From the sequence record PQ656108.1: DNA of 64,000 nt; one strand, given 5' to 3'. Positions 1,411 through 13,983 of the stretch are shown in pieces. Under the pieces are notes generated by a model. It saw nothing but the letters and a program-made list of their open reading frames with translations, did no database searches and was not told the origin of the DNA. Position numbers and translations under genes: made by a program. Position 1 is the stretch's first letter; each line of letters opens with the position of its first letter. The DNA comes from Acinetobacter phage At2.

Positions 1411-1665
1411 ATGCAATTTTACATAATGATGGCAATTGTCACCTTCATTATTTTGGTGATTCGTACTCACATTGTAAGACGTAAAGAAGGAATGGATCCT
1501 TATAAGATGGAAGGCTTTGTAGCCTACTATGCGTTATTAGCAATAGCATCTTGCTTATGGATCCTGACATGGCCTTGTCTAATCATCTACGGTGTAATTG
1601 AATTAATTACTTATCTATTAGATAAGTCAGTACTCCGTAAATACCTTAAAAAGGAAAAACCATAA
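1411..1665 (+). CDS. small membrane protein (84 aa, two hydrophobic helices)
   Basis: AAGGGAG RBS; hydrophobic segments IMMAIVTFIILVI and YALLAIASCLWILTWPCLIIYGVI; stop overlaps next start (TAATG). Confidence 0.5.
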   Translation: MQFYIMMAIVTFIILVIRTHIVRRKEGMDPYKMEGFVAYYALLAIASCLWILTWPCLIIYGVIELITYLLDKSVLRKYLKKEKP

Positions 1666-2483
1666 TGTTTAAGTCATTACGTGGCGTTGCACTAGCTATC
1701 TGTGCTGCCATTGCCTTTGCAGGTTGTTCACCTGTAGTTAAAGTTAGTGATGCCGAAGTAGGTATCCGTGAAACCTTCTCAGGTGAAATTAAAGACAAAG
1801 TCTTAGAGCAAGGCTTCCACCAAAAGGTTGTTGGTAATGTTATCAAGGTATCTAAACGTAACTTGGTACTTACAGTTAAAACCAACCCGATTACTGTAGA
1901 AAAAGTTCCTATGTCGCAGTTTGTGACTAAGATCAACTACGGTATTAATCCTGCAATGGCTGCTGTTGCCTATAAGACAGAAAAGTCTCAGAACTTAGAT
2001 GTTGATGGTGAAGTGCTGCTGCTAGGTAAGTATGTAAGTGATATCACTGATGCTGCTGTACAGACTGCTGTAAGCAAGTACAAAGCCTTAGAGGTGAATG
2101 ATCACCGTACTGAACTTGAAGCTGCCATTAAATCTGAACTAAACAAGCGTCTTAAGCTTGGTGGTAAAGATGTGTATGTCACAGTCAATGAAGTAAATAT
2201 CTTGGCAGTGAAACCACACGAATCAATCATTGCTTCATCTTTGGCAATTGTTAACTCTCAGAACGCTTTGAAAACTAAGCAGAATGAGCTTGAAACAGCC
2301 AAGGTAGAAACAGAAGTAAAACGTGTCTTAGCAGAGAATGCCTCTGAAAAGTACATTGATTTACAACGTGCAGAAGCTGAAATGTTGAAATCACAGGCCC
2401 TATTAGAAGCTGCTAAGAAAGGTACATTAAACACTATGGTTATTGTTCCTGAAAAGTTCAGCGCATTGGGTGCCGTTAAGTAA
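1665..2483 (+). CDS. predicted lipoprotein with an SPFH/band-7-like Ala/Glu-rich C-terminal region
   Basis: Signal peptide with lipobox (AIAFAGC|S); TAATG coupling to upstream gene; the SPFH similarity is judged by eye only. Confidence 0.55.
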   Translation: MFKSLRGVALAICAAIAFAGCSPVVKVSDAEVGIRETFSGEIKDKVLEQGFHQKVVGNVIKVSKRNLVLTVKTNPITVEKVPMSQFVTKINYGINPAMAAVAYKTEKSQNLDVDGEVLLLGKYVSDITDAAVQTAVSKYKALEVNDHRTELEAAIKSELNKRLKLGGKDVYVTVNEVNILAVKPHESIIASSLAIVNSQNALKTKQNELETAKVETEVKRVLAENASEKYIDLQRAEAEMLKSQALLEAAKKGTLNTMVIVPEKFSALGAVK

Positions 2484-2742
2484 TTGGTGTATTGTGAGTA
2501 AATTCCACATTAGGGCTGCAACAGCCTATAAAGTAATTAATGAATTAGGTTTTAGACCTGACAGGTTTACTTTACCACCTACACCAGAAAGTAATTCTCT
2601 TTATGGTGTAAATTTTAAGTTACGTACTGTGTTTTATATGACTCGGTCAGATAAACCAAGACGCAATCTTTCATTTGAAGAGATACGTGAGTTATCAATA
2701 TTACCTATTGAAGCTCATGATGTTTGGATTGAAAATCTTTGA
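2443..2742 (+). CDS. hypothetical protein; start uncertain (ATG 2443 lies inside the upstream gene, alternative GTG 2494)
   Basis: ORF runs exactly up to the terminator hairpin at 2741; no clear RBS. Confidence 0.3.
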   Translation: MFLKSSAHWVPLSNWCIVSKFHIRAATAYKVINELGFRPDRFTLPPTPESNSLYGVNFKLRTVFYMTRSDKPRRNLSFEEIRELSILPIEAHDVWIENL

Positions 2743-2760
2743 ACCCTTCGGGTTCTTTTG
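2741..2760 (+). terminator. rho-independent terminator (gaaccc-ttc-gggttc then TTTT)
   Basis: Perfect 6-bp GC-rich stem followed by T-run, seen directly. Confidence 0.6.
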
Positions 2761-2792
2761 CGGTTTGTCTCTTTGGAGACAGACCCACTATG

Positions 2793-2862
2793 GTGTGTGT
2801 AGCACGGTCTGGTAGTGCATCAGTCATGAAGAAGGTCGTAGGTTCGAATCCTACCACACATC
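2793..2862 (+). tRNA. tRNA-like gene 1, about 70 nt with a truncated or irregular anticodon region
   Basis: 7-bp acceptor stem GTGTGTG/CACACAT, U8, D-arm GCAC-GGTCTGGTA-GTGC, canonical T-arm GTAGG-TTCGAAT-CCTAC. Only 18 nt (2820-2837) remain for anticodon arm plus variable loop and no 5-bp anticodon stem can be drawn. Confidence 0.45.
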
Positions 2863-2869
2863 CGCGATG

Positions 2870-2944
2870 GTCGAGGTAGCTCAGTAGGTAGAGCAGTGGA
2901 CGATAATCCAAAGGTCGCAGGTTCGATTCCTAGCCCTGACCCCA
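2870..2944 (+). tRNA. tRNA-like gene 2 with encoded CCA; anticodon stem mispaired, anticodon unresolved
   Basis: Acceptor GTCGAGG/CCCTGAC (6 of 7 pairs), U8, canonical D-arm GCTC-AGTAGGTA-GAGC, T-loop TTCGATT with only 3 of 5 T-stem pairs, 3-prime CCA at 2942-2944. The best anticodon hairpin is TGGA-CGATAA-TCCA (4-bp stem, 6-nt loop). Confidence 0.45.
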
Positions 2945-3686
2945 AACATTATTGGGCATGAAGAAACATCTTACTTACAGGTTCATCAGCAGCCTGTTAC
3001 GGGTACTATGTAGTCCCGTCTTGTCCACCAAATATTAAAGAATTAAACCAAGGCCAATAACACGGCTCCCTTACTCTGCAGGTTAGGGATAACAAGTTGA
3101 GGTATGGTAAGTGATTACGTATAGCTTCCCCTTGGTTTGATGGGCAGTGAGCTTAAAGCCACTGTCTCCTATGGCGAGACCCAACAATATTATGGTTGGT
3201 GAGCTTCTACCACCTATGGTCTAAATAGGTCAATAAGACTAACAGTGCAATGCTAGTGATTACGGAGTAGATCTTCCGAAAGCTAGTAACACTGTTATTG
3301 CTCTTATTGGGTTGCAAACATGACAACTCAGAACATATCAGTGGTGAGGTTAAATCTCCTGTGACCCATGTAAATATGACTGCATAGAGGCTTTAATACT
3401 GGTTTAGCCTGGAAGGAAGAGGGTAGCTCCCGACTTACCTATAACCATACTAGAGATTCGTCATCTCTGGGTGTTTGCAACGCCAATAAGAGTACCTCTG
3501 CCCCGACTTGTGGCATTAGCTTCCTGCTGTATGACAGGTGACCTCCAAAGCTAGTATCTTCCTTTAGTGTTTACCTCATAGGCACTAAATAGAGACGTAA
3601 CGAGTAAGCCAAGGGCAATCACCCTGAATGCCATGTTTTCCCTATGGTGGCGATCAAGGGAACCAAATTAACCTTTAACCTCTTTT
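2945..3686 (+). other. ORF-free structured noncoding region of about 740 bp (candidate ncRNA, tRNA operon trailer or replication origin)
   Basis: No ORF of 60 aa or more in any frame; repeated CTATGGYG motif at about 2788, 3170, 3214 and 3643; two related hairpin units (cagtgagctt..cactg and ggtgagctt..ccacc, each followed by CCTATGG); closed by a strong terminator at 3687. Confidence 0.5.
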
Positions 3687-3723
3687 ACCCTACATCTTCC
3701 CCAAGGATGTAGGGTATTTTTTT
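3687..3723 (+). terminator. rho-independent terminator (accctacatc-loop-gatgtagggt then TTTTTTT)
   Basis: 10-bp stem followed by 7 T, seen directly. Confidence 0.7.
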
Positions 3724-3740
3724 AACCCAAGGAACAAAAC

Positions 3741-4052
3741 ATGGATATTGCAAATTTAGTGCTTGAATTAGCTAAACCCGAGCATCTCATCTACATAAAT
3801 GTTTTAGGTGTAATCACTACACTGAAACATGATTGTATTGATGGTTACGTAGGGTTAGACGCATCAGGTGAACTGTACTATTACGATAAAAAACCTATGC
3901 CTTGGGCAGATTATGGTTGGAGTCGTGGAATAGGTGGTGAATCACGCTTACTATTAAACCTCAGACAGTTTATTAATATAAATGAGGGTGAATTCCCTTA
4001 TCAAAATGTATGTTTCCCTGTCAGGGAAATACTTATAAAGGCACCAGTATGA
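3741..4052 (+). CDS. hypothetical protein (103 aa), paralog of the next gene
   Basis: AAGGAA RBS; N-terminal similarity to the downstream ORF (M-I--L-LEL--P----Y-N-LG-I...GY...SG--Y-Y). Confidence 0.55.
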   Translation: MDIANLVLELAKPEHLIYINVLGVITTLKHDCIDGYVGLDASGELYYYDKKPMPWADYGWSRGIGGESRLLLNLRQFININEGEFPYQNVCFPVREILIKAPV

Positions 4053-4372
4053 ACATCCCTGAAATAGCTCTTGAGCTTTCCAACCCTAACTCAGTGGGTT
4101 ATGTAAATTATCTAGGCTTAATCTTACCTATTCCTATGGACTATATGGCAGAAGGTTATATAGCTACTGATCAGTCTGGACAGACTTATGTATATAACTT
4201 TGAGCCTTATTTAGATTCAGATAAACAGTGGTCGCCTTCATTTATAAACAACCCTATGGCTAAGATACAACACGTTACTGACTTAAGGGGATTCTTAGGA
4301 CAGTTCTGTTCTATAGATGCTAGTGAGCTGTGTATTAAACTTTCTGAAATTCAGGTTAATCCTATCTATTGA
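4049..4372 (+). CDS. hypothetical protein (107 aa), tandem paralog
   Basis: ATGA start/stop overlap with the upstream gene favours ATG 4049 (MNIPEIALEL...) over the track start 4010. Confidence 0.5.
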   Translation: MNIPEIALELSNPNSVGYVNYLGLILPIPMDYMAEGYIATDQSGQTYVYNFEPYLDSDKQWSPSFINNPMAKIQHVTDLRGFLGQFCSIDASELCIKLSEIQVNPIY

Positions 4373-4771: not shown

Positions 4772-4952
4772 GCCAGAGTTCATACCTGTATATCCTGTAT
4801 CGGACTCTTTAGATGACGCATGGGAACACATGCGTTCCCAATTACCAATTGATTCAATCAATGACTTAAAAAGTCTTGTATCCCAATACCACAACACGCT
4901 CATAGCTGAGCTAACTGAACTGGAAAAAGAAAATGGAAACCACATTAAATAA
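4713..4952 (+). CDS. hypothetical small protein; start uncertain (possibly the internal Met near 4830)
   Basis: ORF track; overlaps both neighbours. Confidence 0.3.
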   Translation: MLYANSLLRHGINNVANKIKPEFIPVYPVSDSLDDAWEHMRSQLPIDSINDLKSLVSQYHNTLIAELTELEKENGNHIK

Positions 4953-5955
4953 AGCTGCTGACCTTATTACTAGCTTCATCTTAGCAGACATCCCTGTAAA
5001 CCTTATTGGTTCACCAGGTGTAGGTAAATCCGACATTATCAAACAAGTAGCTGACAAGCTTAACCTTAAAGTTATTGACTTCCGTTTGTCTACTGCTGAC
5101 CCAACTGACTTAACTGGTTTACCATTCGTTGAAGATGGTCGTAGCGTATTCTTACCAAACGTAGCGTTCCCTATCGAAAAAGATGTGGTACCAGAAGGCT
5201 ATACAGGTTGGTTACTGTTCCTTGACGAAATCTCGAACGCACCTATGGCTGTTCAAGCTGCTGCCTATAAACTGATCCTAGATCGTGAAGTAGGTTTGCA
5301 CAACTTACATCCAGAAGTGAAGATCGTATCTGCAGGTAACAAAATGACTGATGGTGCTGCTGTAACTGGTGAAATGTCTACGGCATTGAAATCACGTATG
5401 GCTCACATCAATATCATTCATAGCCTTGAAGTCTGGTTAGACTGGGCAATGGCTGCAGGTGTTCACCACTCGATCACTTCTTACTTGAAGTTCAGTATCA
5501 AAGACTTCTACCGCTTTGATCCTAAAGATAAAGCTGACACCTTCCCTTGTCCTCGTACATGGGCAATGGCTGACAAGCTTGTACAATCATTAGGCACAAA
5601 CAGTCCTTTGTTACGTGATGCATTAAGTGCCACTATCTCTGATGGTGTAGCAACTAACTACATCAACTTCTGTAAGAACTTCGCAAACCTTCCTACATTT
5701 GCAGACATTGTTAAAGATCCTGAAAATGCTGAAGTGCCTCGTGAATTATCTTCATGCTTTGCAATCTCAGGTTCTATCGGTTCACAAACTGATATCACTA
5801 CTGTAGATCAAGTGATGAAGTACATTGACCGTATGCCTATGGAATTCCAACTGTGTACTTTTAACGACTTCGTTAAACGTAACCCAGGTCTTGCAGCAAA
5901 CACATCTGTACGTGGCTGGTTACGTAAAAACGCACCTCATTTAACTTCTGATTAA
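4933..5955 (+). CDS. MoxR-like AAA+ ATPase
   Basis: Walker A GSPGVGKSD, Walker B/sensor LLFLDEISNAP, about 340 aa as typical for the MoxR family. Confidence 0.65.
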   Translation: METTLNKAADLITSFILADIPVNLIGSPGVGKSDIIKQVADKLNLKVIDFRLSTADPTDLTGLPFVEDGRSVFLPNVAFPIEKDVVPEGYTGWLLFLDEISNAPMAVQAAAYKLILDREVGLHNLHPEVKIVSAGNKMTDGAAVTGEMSTALKSRMAHINIIHSLEVWLDWAMAAGVHHSITSYLKFSIKDFYRFDPKDKADTFPCPRTWAMADKLVQSLGTNSPLLRDALSATISDGVATNYINFCKNFANLPTFADIVKDPENAEVPRELSSCFAISGSIGSQTDITTVDQVMKYIDRMPMEFQLCTFNDFVKRNPGLAANTSVRGWLRKNAPHLTSD

Positions 5956-11359: not shown

Positions 11360-13983
11360 AGACACTTAAGTTTGTTGATGATACACCCAAACCCTTGATT
11401 GGTATTCTGATCAAGGAAACAAGCTTTAAGGAAACCAACCTGATTAAATACTATGTGGAGCCTATGGTAGCCACAGGTATTAAACGTGAAGAAATTGTAG
11501 CTTTCAGCCTTGAGTACACTCAAGGCGGTAAAGCCCCTGCACACTTGATTAAGGATTACATTGACGCATGGTTACAGTCATTCAAAGACGCAGGTGTTAA
11601 ATACCTGTTCTGTGCTGACTCTGCCTACTTCAAAGCCTTAACTAAGCAACGTAAAGCAGATGTAAACCTGGGATACGTTTTACCATGTGCAATTCCAGGA
11701 TTTGAAGATATGCAAGTAGTCTACTCGTTAGGCTATGGTGCACTGGTACATAACCCAAACCAACAGGAAAAGATTGATCTGTCTATTGAAGCTGTCTCTA
11801 CTCACTATCATGGTGCGTATGTGGCAATTGGATCAGACATTATTCATGAAGAACGTTATCCCTATTCAATGTCTGCTATTAAAGCAGAGCTTGCTTACCT
11901 ACATCAGTTCCCAGAACTAGCTGTGGATATTGAAGCCTTCTCTTTAAACTTAAGAGATGCAGGTTTAGGTACGATAGCTTTTGCTGAATCTAAACATAAA
12001 GGTTCAGCATTCCTCGTGGAATATCAACCAATTGTTCCTGAGGATGGTTACTACGCTGTACGGACAGATGCCCCTAAAGTGAAGAGAATGCTACGGCAAT
12101 TCTTTGAATCTTATAGGGGCAAATTGATCGCACACAACGCTTCGTACGACTTCAAGTGTTTGATTCATTCTTTATGGATGAAACATCCTCTTGATTGGGA
12201 TGGTATGTTGCGTGGTTTAGAAGTACTTACCCGTTGCTTTGATGATACCAAGATCATTGCTTACTTGGCTTTAAACAGTACTGCTAAGACTCTGTATGGC
12301 CTTAAAGCTTTAGCCCAACCTTTTGCAGGTAACTGGGCAGAAGATGAAATTAAGGACATTACACGCATACCTCCAGATAAGTTATTACGGTACAACTTAG
12401 TAGATGTATTATCTACACACTACGTAAAGGAAACCTATTACCCAATCATGGTTGCAGAAGAACAGTTGGATATTTATACCAATCTTATGCTGCCATCTCT
12501 GAAAGTAATTGTTCAGATTGAATCTCATGGTTTACCTCTAATACCTGAAAGGGTTCAAGAAGTTAAACGTGATCTTCAAGATCGGGTAGATGTTCTTGTG
12601 GACATTATGGAAACCAATGCTTATGTGTTAGAGGCTACTAACCGTATTCAGGTAGCCACAATGCAAGCTGCTAATGCCAAGCTCAAGAAGAAGGTACATC
12701 CTCGTGAGAAGTTCAATGAACCAATCAACTATAACAGTAATCAGCAACTAGCTATTCTGTTGTATGACGTGATGGAAATGCCTGTCATTGAGTGGACAGA
12801 CTCAGGTGAACGTGCAACTGGCGGTGATGTAATTAAAGCTCTCAGGAAGCACACAAAAGACCCTGAGAAGCTTGAAGTAATGGAAGCACTACATAAGTAC
12901 TCTAAACTTGTGAAAGTGCTTACAGGCTTCATACCGACCTTTGAAGACGCATGGGTTAAAGCTGATGGTATGGGCTATCTACATGGTAGCTTTAACATTG
13001 GTGGAACCAAGTCTGGTAGGCTTAGCTCATCTGATCCTAACTTACAGAACCTGCCTGCAGGTGGTGAATTAGGTAAGTTGATTAAGTCATGCTTTGCAGG
13101 GCCTTGGGGCCATATCTTCTGTGGTGCTGACTTTGCTAGCTTAGAAGATCGTATCTCTGCTTTAACTACCAAAGACCCTAACAAACTGAAAGTTTACACT
13201 GACGGTTATGATGGTCACTGTCTACGTGCCTATGCATACTTTGGTCATAAGATGCCTGATATTGATCCTAATTCTGTTGAGTCAATTAACAGTATCGAAG
13301 AGAAGTATCCTAAGGAACGCCAAGACTCTAAAGCTCCTACGTTTGCCCTTACGTATATGGGTACATGGGCTACGCTTGTTAAGAACTGTGGTTTTACAGA
13401 AGAAGTAGCTAAGTCTATTGAAAAGCTATACCACGAACTTTATGAGCACTCAGACAATGTAATTATGAATCGTATTCATGAAGAAGCTGTAAAACTAGGC
13501 TATGTAAAATTAGCCTTTGGATTGAAGCTTCGTACACCATTACTCAAGAAAACCGTATTAGGTAATCGCTACACTACCAGTGAAGCTAAAGCTGAAATGC
13601 GTACAGCAGGTAATGCTATGGGACAATCCTATGGCTTATTAAACAACCGTGCTGTAGTTGAGTTTATGGAAATTGTTTGGAAGTCTAAACATAGGCTTAA
13701 GATCATGCCAGTAGCATTGATTCATGATGCTATTTACTTAGTTATTGAGGATGATTTAGAAGTGATTGAGTTCGCTAATAAACATCTAACTAAATGTATG
13801 GAATGGCAAGACCTAGAAGAGATCTGGCACGATGAAGTTAAACTCGGTGGTGACTTAGATTTGTTCTATCCTCATTGGGGACACGGCATCACCCTACCAC
13901 GTACTGCAAACCAAATAGAGCTTGTCACTACAGTTCAGGCTGCAATGGACAAGTATTACGCTAAACTTAAAGAGGCAGCTTAG
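11356..13983 (+). CDS. family A DNA polymerase (Pol I-like) with 3-prime to 5-prime exonuclease domain
   Basis: Exo I motif VDIEAFSL, pol motif A GADFASLEDRI, motif B RQDSKAPTFALTYMG, motif C LIHDAIYLV; 875 aa. Confidence 0.8.
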   Translation: MKTLKFVDDTPKPLIGILIKETSFKETNLIKYYVEPMVATGIKREEIVAFSLEYTQGGKAPAHLIKDYIDAWLQSFKDAGVKYLFCADSAYFKALTKQRKADVNLGYVLPCAIPGFEDMQVVYSLGYGALVHNPNQQEKIDLSIEAVSTHYHGAYVAIGSDIIHEERYPYSMSAIKAELAYLHQFPELAVDIEAFSLNLRDAGLGTIAFAESKHKGSAFLVEYQPIVPEDGYYAVRTDAPKVKRMLRQFFESYRGKLIAHNASYDFKCLIHSLWMKHPLDWDGMLRGLEVLTRCFDDTKIIAYLALNSTAKTLYGLKALAQPFAGNWAEDEIKDITRIPPDKLLRYNLVDVLSTHYVKETYYPIMVAEEQLDIYTNLMLPSLKVIVQIESHGLPLIPERVQEVKRDLQDRVDVLVDIMETNAYVLEATNRIQVATMQAANAKLKKKVHPREKFNEPINYNSNQQLAILLYDVMEMPVIEWTDSGERATGGDVIKALRKHTKDPEKLEVMEALHKYSKLVKVLTGFIPTFEDAWVKADGMGYLHGSFNIGGTKSGRLSSSDPNLQNLPAGGELGKLIKSCFAGPWGHIFCGADFASLEDRISALTTKDPNKLKVYTDGYDGHCLRAYAYFGHKMPDIDPNSVESINSIEEKYPKERQDSKAPTFALTYMGTWATLVKNCGFTEEVAKSIEKLYHELYEHSDNVIMNRIHEEAVKLGYVKLAFGLKLRTPLLKKTVLGNRYTTSEAKAEMRTAGNAMGQSYGLLNNRAVVEFMEIVWKSKHRLKIMPVALIHDAIYLVIEDDLEVIEFANKHLTKCMEWQDLEEIWHDEVKLGGDLDLFYPHWGHGITLPRTANQIELVTTVQAAMDKYYAKLKEAA

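Follow-up and report, generated by a model that had tools for sequence, protein, structure and literature searches.

The 64,000 nt of Acinetobacter phage At2 DNA analysed here (PQ656108.1; the window) belong to an N4-like (Schitoviridae) Acinetobacter phage, and they contain a gene-free tract after which the next gene starts with an ATG at 3741. The question raised by this locus is what such a tract encodes. The preliminary description had reported no ORF of at least 60 aa, and this was borne out for 2945-3740 in any frame, as the longest ORF in any frame of 2942-3740 has 39 aa and lies on the - strand. In the 13 homologues described below, the longest ORFs vary in strand and frame, which together with the 39-aa maximum in the window indicates that the element is not coding. 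The conserved unit is 3037-3723 on the + strand, about 680 nt long with a start near 3037, and we consider it probable that this unit encodes a non-coding RNA with several structured domains, which belongs to a previously undescribed family known so far only from N4-like Acinetobacter phages (XC38/nACB1-like). The structure of the RNA, its family and its strand (+) were observed, and any particular function is assigned with low confidence.

The locus and its homologues

Besides the SPFH lipoprotein and N4 gp24-like ATPase genes (Table 1), the neighbours of the element encode small proteins without known function, and all neighbouring genes are on the + strand. At the DNA level the window was matched by XC38 and nACB1 only, piecewise and at about 76-78% identity. 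XC38 contains a 667-bp gap without annotation (L001 4873-5538), with a terminator and an RBS at its end, and in nACB1 four tRNAs are followed by a 747-bp gap (L003 5040-5786); each of these gaps can be aligned with the window and has blocks of identity in common with it. The published description of nACB1 mentions the four tRNAs only (PMC10057805). Homologues of the SPFH protein were then traced to ENA and Logan contigs, which gave ten further loci with large gene-free tracts in the same place, and nhmmer profile matches were obtained in L022/L023, L025, L026, L028, L029, L031, L032, L033, L035, L059 and L061. A pattern of the 5' domain found one true contig in IMG/VR (L040), its other three matches being due to chance. 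The 13 homologues are all N4-like Acinetobacter phages: XC38, nACB1, the IMG/VR contig and ten ENA/Logan contigs. According to nhmmer and a covariance model of the 5' domain (model R1), the element is present in a single copy per genome in XC38, nACB1, L022, L025, L026, L028, L029, L031, L032, L033, L035, L040, L059 and L061.

Model R1 matched every member exactly once, at 68-114 bits. It matched neither the chance loci nor the region of the Vibrio N4-like phage pVa5 that is syntenic with the locus, and the first 50 kb of Acinetobacter phage Presley gave no match either, the best score there being 22 bits. When 2700-3760 was compared by blastn in distant mode with 50,697 phage records, the tRNA part alone was matched. 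The route through the ATPase protein gave no relatives in IMG/VR, exact-pattern scans of IMG/VR with two conserved blocks returned XC38 only, and the 17 matches of a pattern scan of JGI metagenomes were all attributed to chance by blastn. The 5'-domain pattern had 18 matches in GTDB genomes, all of them chance matches, so no host-chromosome or prophage copy was found with that pattern. The SPFH gene was also considered as a marker of the RNA beyond N4-like phages and was rejected, the SPFH neighbourhood of phiAB441 being densely coding.

The ENA and Logan loci are arranged in the order SPFH gene, small ORFs, 5-12 tRNAs, sometimes non-coding modules, element, terminator and next gene. Among the relatives, 4-12 tRNAs lie just 5' of the element on the same strand, and the element stands directly 3' of the tRNA array in nACB1, L022, L025, L026, L028, L029, L031 and L040. 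XC38 has kept the element and lost the array, which means that the link to tRNAs is not obligatory. The shortest copy of the element has about 320 nt (L032) and the longest about 780 nt (L059), that of the window having about 680 nt, and the flanking proteins are 55-85% identical among members. The gene on the 3' side varies, being that of a 103-aa protein in the window and of a membrane protein in L026, and L022 has no adjacent ORF there.

Several smaller features of these loci were recorded. The two small genes after the terminator of the window (3741-4052 and 4010-4372) are apparently paralogues; their XC38 counterpart (L001 5539-5874), judged from translations only, looks split into ORFs of 41 aa and 59 aa and may be a frameshift or a pseudogene. 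At L001 4498-4872, L025 7454-7726, L031 7757-8011 and L040 ~13500-13815, a small upstream ORF terminates within the conserved AAAGAAUUAAACC / P1 5' strand, so that the RNA gene overlaps a coding 3' end in several relatives. In relatives, a further two conserved non-coding modules lie 3' of the tRNA array and 5' of the large RNA, namely A1 (about 150 nt, GCAGUAGCGUGAUUCUGC...UACGCACC) and A2 (about 155 nt), located at L022 6446-6747, L028 6830-7139 and L031 7388-7688, with parts in L029, L032, L033 (3024-3180), L059 and L061. They occur jointly or singly, the window has neither of them, and neither had a match in Rfam. The 5' end of A1 recalls that of tmRNA.

A folded RNA on the + strand

The folding and alignment checks proposed in the preliminary description both favoured a structured RNA. 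The region folded better than dinucleotide shuffles (20 per strand), with -250 kcal/mol and z = -5.35 for the + strand and z = -3.79 for the - strand, and the relatives were found to carry a homologous ORF-free element on the same strand, with helices kept by compensatory changes. The 14 sequences were aligned with E-INS-i, folded by domain and projected on the window. In this way 133 consensus pairs were predicted, 76 of them with changes on both sides; in the 130 pairs that were counted, 90% of the cells were canonical, compared with 37-45% when the 3' partners were slid by 1-3 columns, and clean covarying pairs numbered 57 as against 1-6. An independent count of 132 pairs in the MAFFT alignment A4 gave 83.0% paired cells (37-48% slid), 71 pairs changed on both sides (20-31 slid) and a covariation score of 0.34 (0.07-0.11 slid). 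None of 500 shuffles reached the observed values, a statistic inflated by shared ancestry since all members come from one phage clade, whereas the slid-partner control keeps this relatedness and still separates clearly. Paired cells included 123 G·U and 32 A·C combinations, from which it follows that the selected molecule is single-stranded RNA of the + strand. The terminator is on the + strand as well.

The domains are consecutive and in fixed order, no helix encloses all of them, and the 5' domain and the terminator are the only universal parts (Table 1).

Table 1. Features of the element and its surroundings in the window.
Feature	Coordinates	Strand	Remarks
SPFH lipoprotein gene	1665-2483	+	neighbour of the element
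tRNA-like element 1	2793-2862	+	Rfam tRNA model, 43.6 bits
tRNA-like element 2	2870-2941	+	Rfam tRNA model, 38 bits
Non-conserved spacer, two hairpins	2942-3036	+	outside the conserved RNA
5' domain	3042-3141	+	three-way junction; all 14 members; model R1; inverted repeat I3
P1	3042-3053 / 3130-3141	+	closes the three-way junction
P2 hairpin	3067-3089	+	covarying stem (3 of 4 pairs change on both sides); loop invariant UCUGCAG
CUGCAG, 6-nt palindrome	3076-3081	+	P2 apical loop; invariant in 14 of 14 members
P3	3106-3112 / 3124-3129	+	apical GNRA-type loop
Variable hairpin region	3142-3298	+	alignment, helices, direct repeats D6 and D7
Long-range helix, 22-23 bp	3299-3321 / 3471-3494	+	encloses the central domain
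Central domain	3322-3470	+	optional; inside the long-range helix
Central-domain helices	3329-3338 / 3374-3382; 3388-3392 / 3406-3410 (loop UUUAAUACUGGUUU); 3450-3456 / 3464-3470	+	90-96% paired
3' domain	3506-3605	+	covarying helices
3'-domain helices	3506-3514 / 3597-3605; 3517-3521 / 3549-3553; 3557-3569 / 3583-3595	+	84-95% paired; 5, 4 and 6 pairs change on both sides, respectively
H-type pseudoknot	3630-3661	+	S1 3630-3634 / 3644-3648; S2 3639-3642 / 3658-3661
Intrinsic terminator	3686-3723	+	13-pair stem 3686-3716, then T7 3717-3723
N4 gp24-like ATPase gene	4933-5955	+	neighbour of the element

In the 5' domain, 94% of the cells are paired (31-54% slid) and 13 of 24 pairs change on both sides. 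P1 exists in three covarying versions, AAACCAAKG/CMUUGGUUU, GAGCAAG/CUUGCUC in XC38 and GGUUGUUGAUG/CAUCACAACC in nACB1. No conserved intramolecular partner was found for the CUGCAG of the P2 loop; pairing with CUGCAG in the central domain or in the 3' loop was considered and rejected, the partner sites not being conserved. Over the whole window CTGCAG occurs 57 times where dinucleotide shuffles predict 20.8, so the hexamer is not avoided as a restriction site, and its excess is probably an effect of codon usage (GCTGCAG, CTG-CAG).

The variable region begins with an insertion or duplication specific to the window lineage (3142-3167 and 3168-3180), the first unit of which is missing in L033, followed by a hairpin at 3181-3199, the GGUGAGCUUCUACC unit, a hairpin at 3213-3229, the conserved UCAAUAAGA (3230-3238) and a hairpin at 3242-3296. 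The two related hairpin units noticed in the preliminary description proved to be real direct repeats, at 3140-3154 / 3192-3206 and 3157-3174 / 3202-3219 (D6 and D7). Its four copies of CTATGGYG were reduced to three exact ones (2788, 3169 and 3642), as site 3214 reads CTATGGTC; the whole window has 10 copies where 3 are expected. The CTATGG at 3642 forms the 3' side of stem S1 in the pseudoknot and covaries with the strand opposite, that at 3169 lies in a hairpin unit that is missing from the closest relative L033 and that arose in the window lineage as a duplication of the neighbouring conserved GGUGAGCUUCUACC unit, and that at 2788 overlaps the 5' end of tRNA-like element 1. No copy of CTATGG is conserved as a repeat in the relatives, and an iteron replication origin, one of the alternatives offered earlier, is therefore not supported: what had looked like iterons are a pseudoknot strand, a window-specific insertion and an overlap with a tRNA-like 5' end.

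The long-range helix, with 21 pairs counted, has 94.8% of its cells paired and 12 pairs that change on both sides. Its reading as the inverted repeat at the ends of a mobile element was rejected, as it persists without the central domain and covaries with G·U pairs. A short loop takes the place of the central domain in L028, L022 and L031, and the 3' domain is absent from L031, L061 and L032. Within the 3' domain, the internal loop of the helix 3557-3569 / 3583-3595 consists of the invariant AUCUUCCUU and AAUAGAG. Both stems of the pseudoknot covary in 10 members, with the variants GCCAU/AUGGU, GCAG/CUGU, GUAG/CUAU, GCUG/CAGU and AGAG/CUCU in S1 and UCCC/GGGA, AUCC/GGAU, GUCC/GGAC and CUUG/CAAG in S2.

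The outer 5' strand of the long-range helix contains UCUUAUUG (3302-3309), for which two conserved and mutually exclusive partners exist, CAAUAAGA at 3484-3491 and an upstream copy at 3231-3238. With each partner, 7-8 of the 8 pairs are kept in 13 of 13 members, and in each case one lineage has its own compensation. This alternative pairing could be a switch, a folding intermediate or a strand-exchange site. Three further complementarities (3413-3428/3549-3564, 3346-3354/3674-3682 and 3126-3138/3606-3618) belong to the window only and were discarded, as they are not kept in other members.

At the 3' end, a G+C-containing hairpin is followed directly by a U-tract on the transcribed strand, as in an intrinsic terminator. 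The loop of this hairpin, UUCCCCAAG, is shared by 10 of 13 members and has a single occurrence in the 64 kb of the window, and a terminator of the same kind ends every member that is not cut off. The terminator had previously been described as strong, with a 10-bp stem and T7, 18 nt before an RBS. It is indeed real and strong and does end in T7, but the stem has 13 pairs here, and the 18 nt are the distance from the T-tract to the ATG at 3741; an RBS-like AAGGAA starts about 5 nt after the T-tract.

tRNA-like elements and known RNA families

The upstream genes called tRNA-like in the preliminary description deserve this name according to the Rfam tRNA model, as both scores exceed the RF00005 gathering threshold of 29 bits, but not according to ARAGORN, which found no tRNA anywhere in the window and no tmRNA. 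By ARAGORN and the Rfam alignment, neither has the canonical cloverleaf with a 5-bp anticodon stem and a 7-nt loop, and both anticodon arms are defective. Element 1 has acceptor, D and T arms, and its anticodon arm is a 3-bp stub with a 4-nt loop. Element 2 resembles tRNA-Ile(GAU), but its anticodon loop is shortened by a 1-nt deletion to 6 nt (CGAUAA), and both the acceptor stem and the T stem contain mismatches. L033 and L035 have this element at 86% identity, and the changes in its acceptor and anticodon stems are compensatory. The window lineage is without the 4-12 canonical tRNA genes of its relatives, and the two elements rejected by ARAGORN are what is left between 2740 and 2945; they look like remnants of the larger arrays of the relatives.

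The Ile(GAU)-like element at 2870-2941 also occurs at L033 2924-3018, L022 6053-6124 and L031 7312-7386. Its acceptor stem contains an A·C mismatch that is conserved, its stems differ between the window and L033 by compensatory changes, and at comparable positions in relatives ARAGORN lists odd 'tRNA-???' genes. This element looks like a conserved non-canonical tRNA-like RNA rather than a product of simple decay.

The spacer at 2942-3036 had no similarity in any relative and no Rfam match, and in the closest relative, L033, its position is occupied by module A2. A decayed tRNA was considered for this spacer on account of an acceptor-like pairing and a CCACCA end, but was rejected, since it has no model support and is not conserved.

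The covariance-model search suggested in the preliminary description returned nothing but tRNA. Rfam 15 was scanned over 2400-4000 at E up to 10 with permissive filters, over XC38 at E up to 1 and over four relatives at E up to 0.1, and the tRNA model alone was matched. The element is therefore not GOLLD, ROOL, OLE, HEARO or raiA, nor a group I or group II intron, RNase P RNA, tmRNA or 6S RNA, and no description of it was found in the literature searched. No Rfam intron model, including those of ORF-less group I and group II introns, was matched; the element is intergenic and ends in a terminator, and its varying upstream neighbours (tRNA or small ORF) mean that no gene is split by it, as an intron would require.

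The closest RNAs in kind are GOLLD and ROOL, which the element resembles in context, size class, multi-domain build and the possession of a pseudoknot. GOLLD (RF01998) is a large (often >800 nt), ornate, multi-domain RNA of phages and prophages, often near tRNA islands, with one universally conserved and one variable part and with kissing-loop assembly (PMC12286853, PMC5737381). ROOL (RF03087), of about 580 nt, has multistem junctions, pseudoknots and few highly conserved nucleotides, is found in phages and prophages near tRNAs, with which it may be co-transcribed, and forms RNA-only cages via kissing loops (PMC5737381, PMC12286853). Both form such cages through kissing loops and A-minor contacts (PMC5737381, PMC12286853, PMC12990946). 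The tRNA-adjacent location of GOLLD in phages and prophages recurs here, with tRNA arrays in the relatives and two tRNA-like genes in the window. However, GOLLD had no covariance-model match in the window at E up to 10 and none in the relatives scanned, its universal part is the 3' region and not the 5' end as here, and the element is smaller (320-780 nt) and found only in N4-like Acinetobacter phages. ROOL likewise had no model match at E up to 10; its helices and conserved nucleotides differ, only one pseudoknot was detected in the element, and the hosts are Firmicutes and rumen bacteria for ROOL as against Acinetobacter.

OLE, too, self-associates through kissing loops. The phi29 prohead RNA (pRNA) is one of several RNAs that associate with themselves by way of complementary or palindromic loops; it has about 170 nt, is encoded close to an end of the genome and serves the packaging motor. 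By analogy, the element may be likened to it as a phage-encoded structured RNA with an exposed loop able to pair between molecules, although the two have no similarity in sequence or structure. Palindromic pairing is a common route to RNA homodimers (PMC12990946), and for a homo-oligomeric assembly as in GOLLD and ROOL the sole hint here would be the invariant palindromic loop CUGCAG.

Possible mode of action and alternatives

The reading of the tract as a long structured non-coding RNA trailing a tRNA operon, put forward in the preliminary description, is supported by its position 3' of a tRNA array in almost all relatives, by the common terminator and by the compensatory helices. Considering these results, we propose the following course of events. 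The element would be transcribed from the + strand as the last unit of a phage tRNA operon in the early or middle gene block. Processing enzymes acting on the upstream tRNAs or tRNA-like elements probably free its 5' end, and the defective but structurally conserved tRNA-like elements of the window could still direct this processing. The 3' end would be set by the element's own conserved intrinsic terminator, and a stable RNA would then accumulate and act in trans. Its universal core consists of the terminator hairpin and the 5' three-way junction, on which the invariant palindrome CUGCAG is displayed in a loop; to this core the variable hairpins, the long-range helix with the central domain and the pseudoknotted 3' domain are added as modules. 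The mechanism that we prefer would be that of a scaffold or decoy RNA acting via its conserved exposed loops, which may self-associate through the palindromic loop. Such self-association is speculative, and so is a decoy or scaffold role tied to tRNA biology or host defence.

Other explanations of the same locus have to be weighed against a single trans-acting RNA. As no helix encloses the whole and domains are lost independently, the unit could be several RNAs, or it could be partly decaying. Several independent small RNAs or processing products of one precursor (the 5' domain, the long hairpin with the central domain, and the 3' domain) would fit the sequential arrangement, the independent loss of the central or 3' domain in L028, L022, L031, L061 and L032, and the further separable modules A1 and A2 in the same tract of the relatives. 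Nevertheless, the domains always come in the same order, without terminators or tRNA-like punctuation in between, and a single terminator with a family-specific loop closes the unit at its end; we regard this explanation as unlikely. A cis-acting leader or attenuator, in which the structured RNA controls read-through of the terminator into the downstream genes in the manner of a riboswitch or T-box, appears still less likely. Its attraction is that the terminator ends 18 nt 5' of the next start codon with an RBS directly after it, and that the mutually exclusive helices of 3302-3309 with 3231-3238 or 3484-3491 are conserved and switch-like. Against it, different members have different genes 3' of the terminator, the terminator stem was not found to take part in any alternative pairing, Rfam gave no riboswitch or T-box match, and the same terminator is kept in members without the 3' or central domain. 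To our knowledge, 680 nt is also far above the size of any known attenuator.

A function at the DNA level, whether as an iteron replication origin, a packaging site or a cluster of hairpin promoters for the virion RNA polymerase, is very improbable in our judgement. N4-type early promoters are DNA hairpins, and the window does have short repeated motifs and many hairpins here; but the repeats are not kept as repeats in the relatives, the pseudoknot and helices whose strands lie 80-170 nt apart are maintained by compensatory changes, the roughly fourfold excess of G·U over A·C fits single-stranded RNA of the + strand and not duplex DNA, and the element is absent from the other Schitoviridae checked. 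The least credible account, with hardly any chance of being correct, is that of decayed coding or tRNA sequence, a remnant without a function of its own. It can point to the loss of the relatives' canonical tRNAs from the window lineage, which retains two defective tRNA-like genes, and to the unconserved 2942-3036. For 3037-3723 this account is already contradicted, because this unit is conserved where flanking proteins are only 55-85% identical, and its changes are compensatory and not neutral. Nor does the decayed tRNA array of the preliminary description hold for the body of the element, which is without tRNA signal in Rfam and is conserved as something other than tRNA.

Returning to the structured trans-acting RNA, bacterial and phage RNAs of this size and complexity are rare, and every class known so far has brought surprises in its biochemistry (ribozymes, and the cages that ROOL and GOLLD build from RNA only). 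Giant structured RNAs beside phage tRNA arrays were known, and the present family repeats this context with an unrelated fold, which suggests that the association is functional and convergent. We offer only tentatively, as a possibility that is more doubtful than not, the idea that, beside ROOL and GOLLD, the family is a third class of giant phage RNAs associated with tRNA arrays, one that evolved independently and, as they do, would form an RNA-only homo-oligomer; the CUGCAG loop would nucleate it, and strand exchange between the two CAAUAAGA copies might assist. In contrast to ROOL and GOLLD, the element is found in lytic, cultivable phages with natural domain-deletion variants. Two isolated lytic phages with cultivable hosts carry it, XC38 (A. 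pittii) and nACB1 (A. beijerinckii), and there are natural variants without the central domain, without the 3' domain and without the tRNA array, the minimal core being about 100 nt plus the terminator. The ~700-bp "gaps" in the published genomes of these phages deserve annotation as non-coding RNA genes.

Another ORF-free stretch was noticed elsewhere in the window, at 217-392 (175 nt), 5' of a gene for a 209-aa protein. It is 80-88% identical in XC38, L033, nACB1 and L059, which exceeds the conservation of the flanking coding DNA, and it folds at -63 kcal/mol with a long closing helix GAACUGUCU/AGACAGUUC. This stretch may be a second structured RNA or a 5' leader.
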